Source: Escherichia coli (GTDB taxonomy: Bacteria > Pseudomonadota > Gammaproteobacteria > Enterobacterales > Enterobacteriaceae). Taken from it: a stretch of 206 bases of DNA. Of the stretch, positions 1 through 206 are shown in pieces. The stretch lies in NCBI RefSeq assembly GCF_003334405.1, contig NZ_QOWM01000079.1. The stretch is one strand, 5' to 3'. Positions within the stretch are counted from its first letter, which is position 1; the number at the start of each line of letters is the position of its first letter. The notes under the pieces were generated by a model. It saw only the letters and a program-made list of their open reading frames with translations. It searched no databases and was not told the DNA's origin. A program made the translations under genes and the position numbers.

Positions 1-26
1 CGGCGTGAACGCCTTATCCGGCCTAC
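1..26 (+). repeat. Y-type REP, 5'-truncated by window edge (CGGCGTGAACGCCTTATCCGGCCTAC)
   Basis: Identical to the 3' 26 nt of the full Y REP at 86-119 except for A8 versus G101 in the loop; ends in the characteristic GGCCTAC tail. Confidence 0.8.
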
Positions 27-43
27 GAATGGCGCAAGAATCT

Positions 44-72
44 GTAGGCCTGATAAGCGTAGCGCATCAGGC
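44..72 (-). repeat. Z-type REP (Z2-like), inverted relative to the Y REPs
   Basis: Reverse complement of 44-72 is GCCTGATGCGCTACGCTTATCAGGCCTAC. Imperfect palindrome: 48-54 GCCTGAT pairs with 66-72 ATCAGGC; inner GCG 57-59 pairs with CGC 63-65; AA bulge at 55-56; loop TAG 60-62. Same GCCTAC tail as the Y REP but read on the opposite strand. Confidence 0.75.
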
Positions 73-85
73 ATTTGCCACCACT

Positions 86-119
86 GCCGGATGCGGCGTG
101 GACGCCTTATCCGGCCTAC
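86..119 (+). repeat. Y-type REP, complete (GCCGGATGCGGCGTGGACGCCTTATCCGGCCTAC)
   Basis: Imperfect palindrome: 86-92 GCCGGAT pairs with 109-115 ATCCGGC; 95-98 GGCG pairs with 103-106 CGCC; loop TGGA 99-102; internal mismatch GC/TT at 93-94 versus 107-108. Matches the E. coli REP consensus as I recall it. Confidence 0.85.
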
Positions 120-136
120 GAGTGGCGCGAGAATCT

Positions 137-165
137 GTAGGCCTGATAAGCGTAGCGCATCAGGC
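137..165 (-). repeat. Z-type REP (Z2-like), inverted, second copy
   Basis: Identical in sequence to 44-72 and offset by exactly 93 bp. Confidence 0.75.
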
Positions 166-178
166 ATTTGTCACCATT

Positions 179-206
179 GCCGGATGCGGCGTGAACGCCT
201 TATCCG
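179..206 (+). repeat. Y-type REP, 3'-truncated by window edge (GCCGGATGCGGCGTGAACGCCTTATCCG)
   Basis: Begins with GCCGGATGCGGCGTG exactly as at 86-100 and continues with the AACGCCTTATCCG seen at 8-20; runs off the window end. Confidence 0.8.

Follow-up and report, generated by a model that had tools for sequence, protein, structure and literature searches.

What makes two adjacent copies of a tandem repeat in Escherichia coli differ only by transitions, and only outside the stems of the palindromes that they carry? The question is raised by a stretch of 206 nt, referred to here as the window, in which a 93-bp unit with two REPs is repeated with five differences between its first and second copy. 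An earlier note on this DNA had taken the pattern to fit either structural constraint on the palindromes or an alternation of unit variants within a longer array. Our main reading, to which we assign a probability of about 0.8, is that the window comprises units 2 to 4 of a BIME-2 array that has four units in E. coli K-12 and separates yahG from yahI (REP23, lying under the doubtful open reading frame [ORF] yahH), that the differences between its units are ordinary ones, and that the REP core changes more slowly. The literature already covers the element and its architecture, the variation in its linkers and copy number, and the unit differences of this locus: yahH was equated with REP23 by Neuhaus et al. 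2016 (PMC4765031), whose Fig. 4 shows the O157:H7 array as five near-identical blocks with the single-nucleotide differences marked.

The window matches E. coli chromosomes at yahH with 100% identity over 206 nt, in hundreds of chromosomes. In both J53 and MG1655, it follows the yahG stop codon and precedes the start of yahI, with all of them on the same strand. The whole K-12 array measures 360 bp (L001, 2399-2758) and holds 3.9 units of 93 bp, the last of its four units having no spacer; the window runs from the end part of unit 2 through all of unit 3 into the first part of unit 4. Run on the window itself, TRF reports a single array with a period of 93, 2.2 copies, 94% matches, and 0 indels. 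No REP repeat features are annotated in this stretch of the MG1655 RefSeq record, and no promoter-like or intrinsic-terminator-like sites were found within the array.

Each 93-bp unit consists, in this order, of a Y REP (GCCGGATGCGGCGTGAACGCCTTATCCGGC), CTAC, a 17-nt linker, GTAG, a Z2 REP (GCCTGATAAGCGTAGCGCATCAGGC), and a 13-nt spacer; the linker joins the tails of Y and Z2 (tail-to-tail), and the spacer joins their heads (head-to-head). The GTAG-led (REP) strand of the Y REP is the minus strand. Along the window, these elements are arranged as follows.

1-22, minus strand: Y REP of K-12 unit 2, a 30-nt imperfect palindrome of which only the 3' 22 nt fall within the window; loop TGAA at 6-9, site 8 = A
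23-26, plus strand: CTAC of the Y REP of K-12 unit 2 (definition from PMC3333891)
27-43, no strand: tail-to-tail linker (S motif of BIME-2), 17 nt, GAATGGCGCAAGAATCT; sites 29 = A and 36 = A
44-47, plus strand: GTAG tetranucleotide of the Z2 REP
48-72, plus strand: Z2 REP, 25-nt imperfect palindrome GCCTGATAAGCGTAGCGCATCAGGC, identical in both copies
73-85, no strand: head-to-head spacer, 13 nt, ATTTGCCACCACT; sites 78 = C and 84 = C
86-115, minus strand: complete Y REP (K-12 unit 3); loop TGGA at 99-102, site 101 = G
116-119, plus strand: CTAC of the Y REP of K-12 unit 3
120-136, no strand: second copy of the tail-to-tail linker, GAGTGGCGCGAGAATCT; sites 122 = G and 129 = G
137-140, plus strand: GTAG of the Z2 REP, second copy
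141-165, plus strand: Z2 REP, second copy
166-178, no strand: second copy of the head-to-head spacer, ATTTGTCACCATT; sites 171 = T and 177 = T
179-206, minus strand: Y REP of K-12 unit 4, with 2 nt missing at the window end; loop TGAA at 192-195, 194 = A

BIME-2 elements are defined by y and z2 REPs in inverted orientation, joined by a short S linker and arranged in tandem, with well-conserved REPs and with linkers and strain copy numbers that vary (Ton-Hoang et al. 2012, PMC3333891). Because the window fits this definition in its tandem units and in its REP architecture with GTAG/CTAC and a stem bulge, we assign it to BIME-2, a likeness drawn from the description rather than from consensus sequences of the S, s, l, and r motifs; nothing substantial differs. 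Y and Z2 REPs alternate in inverted orientation, each an imperfect palindrome whose stem has a mismatch bulge and, on the 5' side of its foot, a GTAG; the linker and spacer are short, as opposed to the long L motif of BIME-1; the units stand in tandem, and their number varies among strains (3.9 in K-12 and 0 to 5 in 14 others); and the array is extragenic, overlapping only with the doubtful ORF yahH.

The REP hairpins were annotated by anchoring on GTAG/CTAC, in place of folding energy alone. Annotation by the lowest folding energy was tried and rejected: in many arrays, it pairs the arms of neighboring REPs across the linker or spacer and thus yields wrong classes. Folds of the whole window at the minimum free energy (MFE) consist of long nested Y-by-Z pairings (z = -5.2), which bring out a strong self-complementarity and do not delimit the REP units. 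A side observation from these folds is that pairing of the 3' arm of one REP with the 5' arm of its neighbor, across the linker or spacer, is favored over the individual REP hairpins, both in the window (1-206) and in the arrays L025, L049, L053, L071, L080, L091, and L100; in energetic terms, other cruciform or RNA conformations can therefore compete in BIME arrays.

Compared position by position, copy 1 (1-93) and copy 2 (94-186) show exactly the five mismatches described before, 8/101 (A/G), 29/122 (A/G), 36/129 (A/G), 78/171 (C/T), and 84/177 (C/T), and all five are transitions. The first occupies the third position in the apical loop of the Y REP (TGAA at 6-9 vs TGGA at 99-102); sites 29/122 and 36/129 fall into the tail-to-tail linker (27-43 and 120-136), and sites 78/171 and 84/177 into the head-to-head spacer (73-85 and 166-178). 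No REP stem contains a difference, and the positions of stem, bulge, and GTAG/CTAC are identical in both copies. The third copy, of which 20 nt are present, departs from copy 2 solely at 101/194 (G/A), so that 194 is A as in copy 1. In all these respects the earlier description was accurate.

Does this placement mean anything? With 40-44 of the 93 unit positions paired, the probability that none of five differences falls into a stem is 0.037-0.055. It becomes 0.14-0.18 if the linker pair and the spacer pair each count as one linked haplotype (three events), a linkage that the orthologues suggest for both pairs, and 0.24 is expected under the empirical class rates. The avoidance of stems in the window alone is hence a real pattern that does not exceed chance. 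Although these figures would allow the five differences to be a meaningless chance placement, they do so for the window taken by itself; in the larger samples described below the bias is highly significant, and the placement in the window therefore follows a general rule rather than being a fluke. We regard the chance reading as practically negligible. The caution originally voiced about the transitions, that five events make the bias statistically weak, holds as well: at the transition fraction of 0.62-0.67 seen in comparable arrays, five transitions out of five have a probability of 0.09-0.13, that is, about 0.1.

The second proposal of the earlier note, alternating units of the type A-B-A-B, is contradicted by the complete K-12 array. 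From unit 1 to unit 4, the loop variant reads A, A, G, A, the linker variants read AA, AA, GG, GG, and the spacer variants read TT, CC, TT, the last unit being without a spacer. The same emerges from all 11 arrays with at least four full units, including those of K-12 and O157:H7, in which the mean differences at lag 2 equal those at lag 1. The A at position 194 matches copy 1 simply because the G in the loop is a singleton of unit 3.

For a view across strains, the orthologous region was taken from 14 further strains, which were picked across the similarity ranking and not at random, and 31 units were aligned. The size of the array ranges from 5 units in O157:H7 over 3, 2, or 1 in other strains to 0 in 21AH057, and the array of strain RMDEC465 is interrupted by IS621. 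Linker columns 38 and 45 (window 29/122 and 36/129) vary in many of the units and strains, with the G in column 38 and both A and G in column 45 recurring in other units or strains. The spacer pair 87C and 93C (window 78 and 84) recurs jointly in THO-006 and CU42ET-1, and the loop G (column 17) is private to K-12 unit 3 among the sampled orthologues. Judged from this distribution, four of the five differences are older polymorphisms shared among units and strains, and the fifth, the change from A to G in the loop, arose privately in unit 3 of the K-12 lineage. The four linker and spacer variants would have been re-assorted among units by unequal recombination or slippage, a process that would also change the copy number. 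One array fits this picture closely: fusing units 2 and 3 of the K-12 array between loop and linker yields the 3-unit array of fS25a, as would be expected from a single unequal exchange.

The orthologous region also holds several observations of its own. In 21AH057, the site (L015, 338-426) holds a segment of about 58 nt with a hairpin formed by CCCTTCTCCC and GGGGAGAGGG, which looks like a different small repeat and is possibly boxC-like; the locus is therefore occupied by different elements in different strains. In unit 3 of RMDEC465 (L016, about 1190-1210), IS621, a member of the IS110 family, sits precisely at the junction of GTAG and the Z2 REP stem, before the first base of the latter, with GAATCTGTAG on one side of the insertion and ATACTGTT on the other; read on the other strand, the site is ATCAGGC^CTAC. 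This insertion point presumably agrees with the REP target preference that has been reported for IS621. In the last unit of E. coli 042 (L005, about 520-530), the last Z2 REP is preceded by CTAG instead of GTAG, and this REP would therefore be without the tetranucleotide that TnpA(REP) requires. Finally, the distance from the yahG stop codon to the first Y REP comes in two forms, one of 13 nt (CCTACATGTTCAT) in K-12-type strains (L001, 2387-2400) and one of 23 nt (CCTGCAAAGTGCGCGTTGTCTCT) in other strains (338-360 in L005, L006, L009, L011, and L012).

When the events in the orthologues are counted as variable columns, without a phylogeny, 9 of 44 stem columns, 0 of 4 bulge columns, and 1 of 8 GTAG/CTAC columns vary, as do 2 of 7 columns in the loops, 8 of 17 in the linker, and 6 of 13 in the spacer. 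Grouped into stem, bulge, and tetranucleotide on the one hand and loop, linker, and spacer on the other, this amounts to 10/56 vs 16/37 variable columns (p = 0.01). The stem changes comprise one unit with a double compensatory change (GGCG/CGCC to GACA/TGTC, in THO-006 unit 1), two changes that lead to G.T, and three that break a pair.

A larger and independent sample came from species-representative genomes, which were scanned for the tail-to-tail REP junction. The scan returned 120 loci in Escherichia, Citrobacter, Pseudocitrobacter, Kosakonia, and others; in at least one unit, the search pattern required CCTAC and 14 fixed nucleotides of the Z-type REP. TRF delivered 21 arrays of two-REP units with periods of 84-118 nt, the units of which were mapped on their consensus. 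Variable columns within arrays were then counted for each class of position.

Stems: 55 variable columns of 953 (5.8%)
Stem bulges: 9 variable columns of 119 (7.6%)
GTAG/CTAC: 11 variable columns of 164 (6.7%)
Apical loops: 24 variable columns of 151 (15.9%)
Tail-to-tail linkers: 69 variable columns of 327 (21.1%)
Head-to-head spacers: 44 variable columns of 283 (15.5%)

Stems vary far less than all other classes taken together (odds ratio 0.35, p = 1e-11, Fisher test on the 21 arrays) and about 3-fold less than loops, linkers, and spacers (5.8% vs 18.0%, p = 2e-15). The difference persists when the counts are limited to the stems of the Y REPs, which the search pattern leaves unconstrained (6.8% variable, p = 3e-8). 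Bulge and tetranucleotide likewise vary less than loop, linker, and spacer (p = 4e-6), and loops show no difference from linkers and spacers (15.9% vs 18.5%, p = 0.48). The constraint thus extends beyond pairing alone: the unpaired bulge and GTAG/CTAC are as conserved as the stems, and the apical loop is as free as the linkers.

Pairing as such has also left its mark. Among 53 distinct Y REPs, 5 of the 12 stem pairs vary on both sides, with 18 covariation cells vs 2.8 after shuffling and 0 of 500 shuffles reaching as high a value; 97% of the cells are paired, compared to 34-44% when the partners are slid. This constraint is partial, given that pair-breaking substitutions make up about half (27 of 61) of the unit-level stem cases.

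The ratio of transitions to transversions in the 21 paralogous arrays is an ordinary 2:1 (146:73), and that of the orthologues is 20:9, which leaves nothing of a special transition bias. Stems are mildly enriched in transitions (44:11, vs 102:62 elsewhere; p = 0.02), which fits a tolerance of G.T-type mismatches. A strand-specific form of this constraint, in which G.T would be tolerated on one strand, was considered and rejected, as the counts on the GTAG-led and the CTAC strand are 17:17. The earlier note had named as its own refutation a larger set of units with substitutions spread evenly over stems and linkers and a normal transition/transversion ratio. The ratio did turn out normal, and with it the transition bias is refuted; the distribution over stems and linkers is uneven, and the constraint on the palindromes survives, backed by the 3-fold lower variability of stems, by the covariation in Y stems, and by the trend in the orthologues. 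That proposal is therefore partly supported, being right in general and not demonstrated by the window alone.

On these counts, the five differences lie outside the stems because the REP core, that is, the stem, the 2-nt bulge, and GTAG, changes about three times more slowly than loop, linker, and spacer. We infer as the cause selection on a folded single-stranded hairpin that needs to be recognized by a protein. The first candidate for this protein would be the REP-associated tyrosine transposase TnpA(REP). This enzyme binds single-stranded REPs, and both GTAG and the unpaired mismatch in the stem are required for binding and cleavage (PMC3333891). In SELEX experiments, the loop sequences of y, z1, and z2 were unselected, and the unpaired state of the bulge and contacts with the lower stem mattered (PMC8266576). 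The variability profile matches these determinants point for point, which makes a folded hairpin recognized by a protein the best explanation, and at this locus, too, such selection is the cause that we would propose. Further constraints are possible. DNA gyrase may act at the Y REPs of BIME-2: it cleaves y REPs in a subset of these elements in vivo, with a preference for loops and noncomplementary regions (PMC6379681); the supplement text of that study does not mention yahG/H/I or REP23. The hairpins might also act at the RNA level in the yahG-yahI transcript. REPs located at most 15 nt from a stop codon stall ribosomes, as cited in PMC12306157, and in K-12-type strains 13 nt separate the yahG stop from the beginning of the first Y stem. 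Of the two forms of this distance, only the 13-nt one places the REP inside the 15 nt reported for the stalling of terminating ribosomes.

An alternative explanation does without selection. Here, the REP core would be overwritten by gene conversion from the hundreds of REP copies in the genome, or by template switching within the palindrome, and the linkers, having no donors, would drift. REPs are indeed numerous, and at E < 1e-5 the window has a median of 19 matches per genome; the unit variants of this locus have clearly been re-assorted among units and strains; TnpA(REP) catalyzes strand exchange between BIMEs in vitro (PMC3333891); and the absence of a strand asymmetry in stem transitions (G.T vs A.C) singles out no single folded strand. 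However, the apical loops, which are 3-5 nt long and lie inside the presumed conversion tract, vary like linkers, the 2-nt bulge, which template switching should erase by making the palindrome perfect, is conserved to the same degree as the stems, and compensatory double changes do occur. While the counts cannot fully separate selection from homogenization or palindrome-templated repair, we consider this alternative unlikely, and selection on the recognized hairpin remains our preferred explanation for the slow REP core.

It is tempting to go one step further and to read the within-array profile, including its lack of a strand asymmetry, as the population-level footprint of continuing recognition by TnpA(REP). 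Selection would then maintain the arrays for being processed and propagated, not for a host function at each locus, and cleavage by TnpA(REP) near CTAC, instead of homologous slippage, would shuffle their variants. The enzyme cleaves at CT dinucleotides in inverted REPs and linkers and recombines BIMEs in vitro (PMC3333891). We regard this scenario as possible but doubtful.

A different kind of constraint would apply if the array was a coding sequence. The window is traversed by the following annotated frame.

2-205, plus strand: reading frame of the annotated ORF yahH (b0322), open through the array

The array would in this case encode a protein with 31-residue repeats, and the differences between units would reflect constraint at the protein level. 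Frame 2 of the plus strand is open across the window, yahH is annotated in RefSeq, and ribosome footprints over the O157:H7 ORF have been reported, with translation proposed (PMC4765031). That the frame stays open across the array is explained by the period, which equals 31 codons. Against a protein, all five differences are nonsynonymous (N/D, M/V, Q/R, A/V, and T/I), a second plus-strand frame is open as well, strains have 0 to 5 units and 1-nt linker indels, with one strain lacking a REP array, and the annotated ORFs vary among strains in start, length, and frame. Moreover, the period is a multiple of 3 in 7 of the 21 comparable arrays, as many as chance would give, and the conservation profile tracks the anatomy of the hairpins rather than codon positions. 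A protein-coding gene would be expected to keep its frame and protein sequence in orthologues, and neither is conserved here. As far as the sequences can tell, yahH is probably not a constrained coding sequence, and we hold the coding explanation to be highly improbable. The annotation itself is unsettled: yahH (L001, 2436-2732) has 321 nt in MG1655 and 297 nt in J53, with different starts, and in other strains differing "hypothetical protein" ORFs are annotated over these repeats.

A second annotation arises from Rfam, in which the family naRNA4 (RF02564) matches the window twice.

47-116, minus strand: naRNA4 (RF02564) match, comprising Y hairpin, head-to-head spacer, and Z2 hairpin; 72.4 bits vs a gathering score of 59.5
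140-206, minus strand: second naRNA4 (RF02564) match; 66.6 bits vs a gathering score of 59.5

Only on the minus strand do the scores reach the gathering threshold of the family; the plus-strand matches stay under it, with 52.7 and 42.6 bits. RF02564 was built on the BIME array REP325 (PMC4550694). Since the matching strand is antisense to yahG-yahI, the match reflects the BIME architecture common to both arrays and does not argue for an RNA gene. By the same token, annotation with Rfam would probably call naRNA4 at many BIME-2 arrays, whatever their transcription.

Beyond the textbook view of conserved REP hairpins, drifting linkers and loops in BIME-2, and copy numbers that vary among strains, the locus matters little. 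A modest addition is the quantitative profile of variability per class in 21 arrays, which is in line with the determinants of TnpA(REP) (GTAG, bulge, and stem, and not the loop). The locus is also a reminder for annotation, as both the ORF yahH and the antisense Rfam matches are by-products of the repeat structure.

Among known systems, two invite comparison. The first is REP325, located between yjdM and yjdN, which is alike in build, with a tandem unit of about 100 bp composed of Y, spacer, Z, and linker, and in which the units likewise differ mostly in spacer, linker, and loops. The GTAG-led Y hairpin of REP325 lies on the strand transcribed from the upstream gene, whereas its counterpart in the array studied here is antisense to yahG-yahI. 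REP325 also has a longer second REP, with 32 nt (GCCTGATGCGACGCTTGCGCGTCTTATCAGGC) vs the 25 nt of the Z2 REP. HU binding and effects on the nucleoid have been shown for REP325 only. In MG1655, REP325 (L137, 9743-10399) has six units, which were left out of the 21-array counts; as an exception, its REP nearest yjdM differs in the loop-adjacent part of the stem and is preceded by TAAG, not GTAG. The second system is the REPtron, in which REPs serve as substrates of the tyrosine transposase TnpA(REP)/RAYT and which is related to the subterminal hairpins of IS200/IS605. The REPs of the window share with it the GTAG at the stem foot and the 2-nt mismatch in the stem, both of which TnpA(REP) needs, and the profile within arrays, with GTAG, bulge, and stem conserved and the loop free, mirrors the results of SELEX and mutational analysis (PMC3333891, PMC8266576). 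The array between yahG and yahI differs in that it is not adjacent to tnpA(REP).
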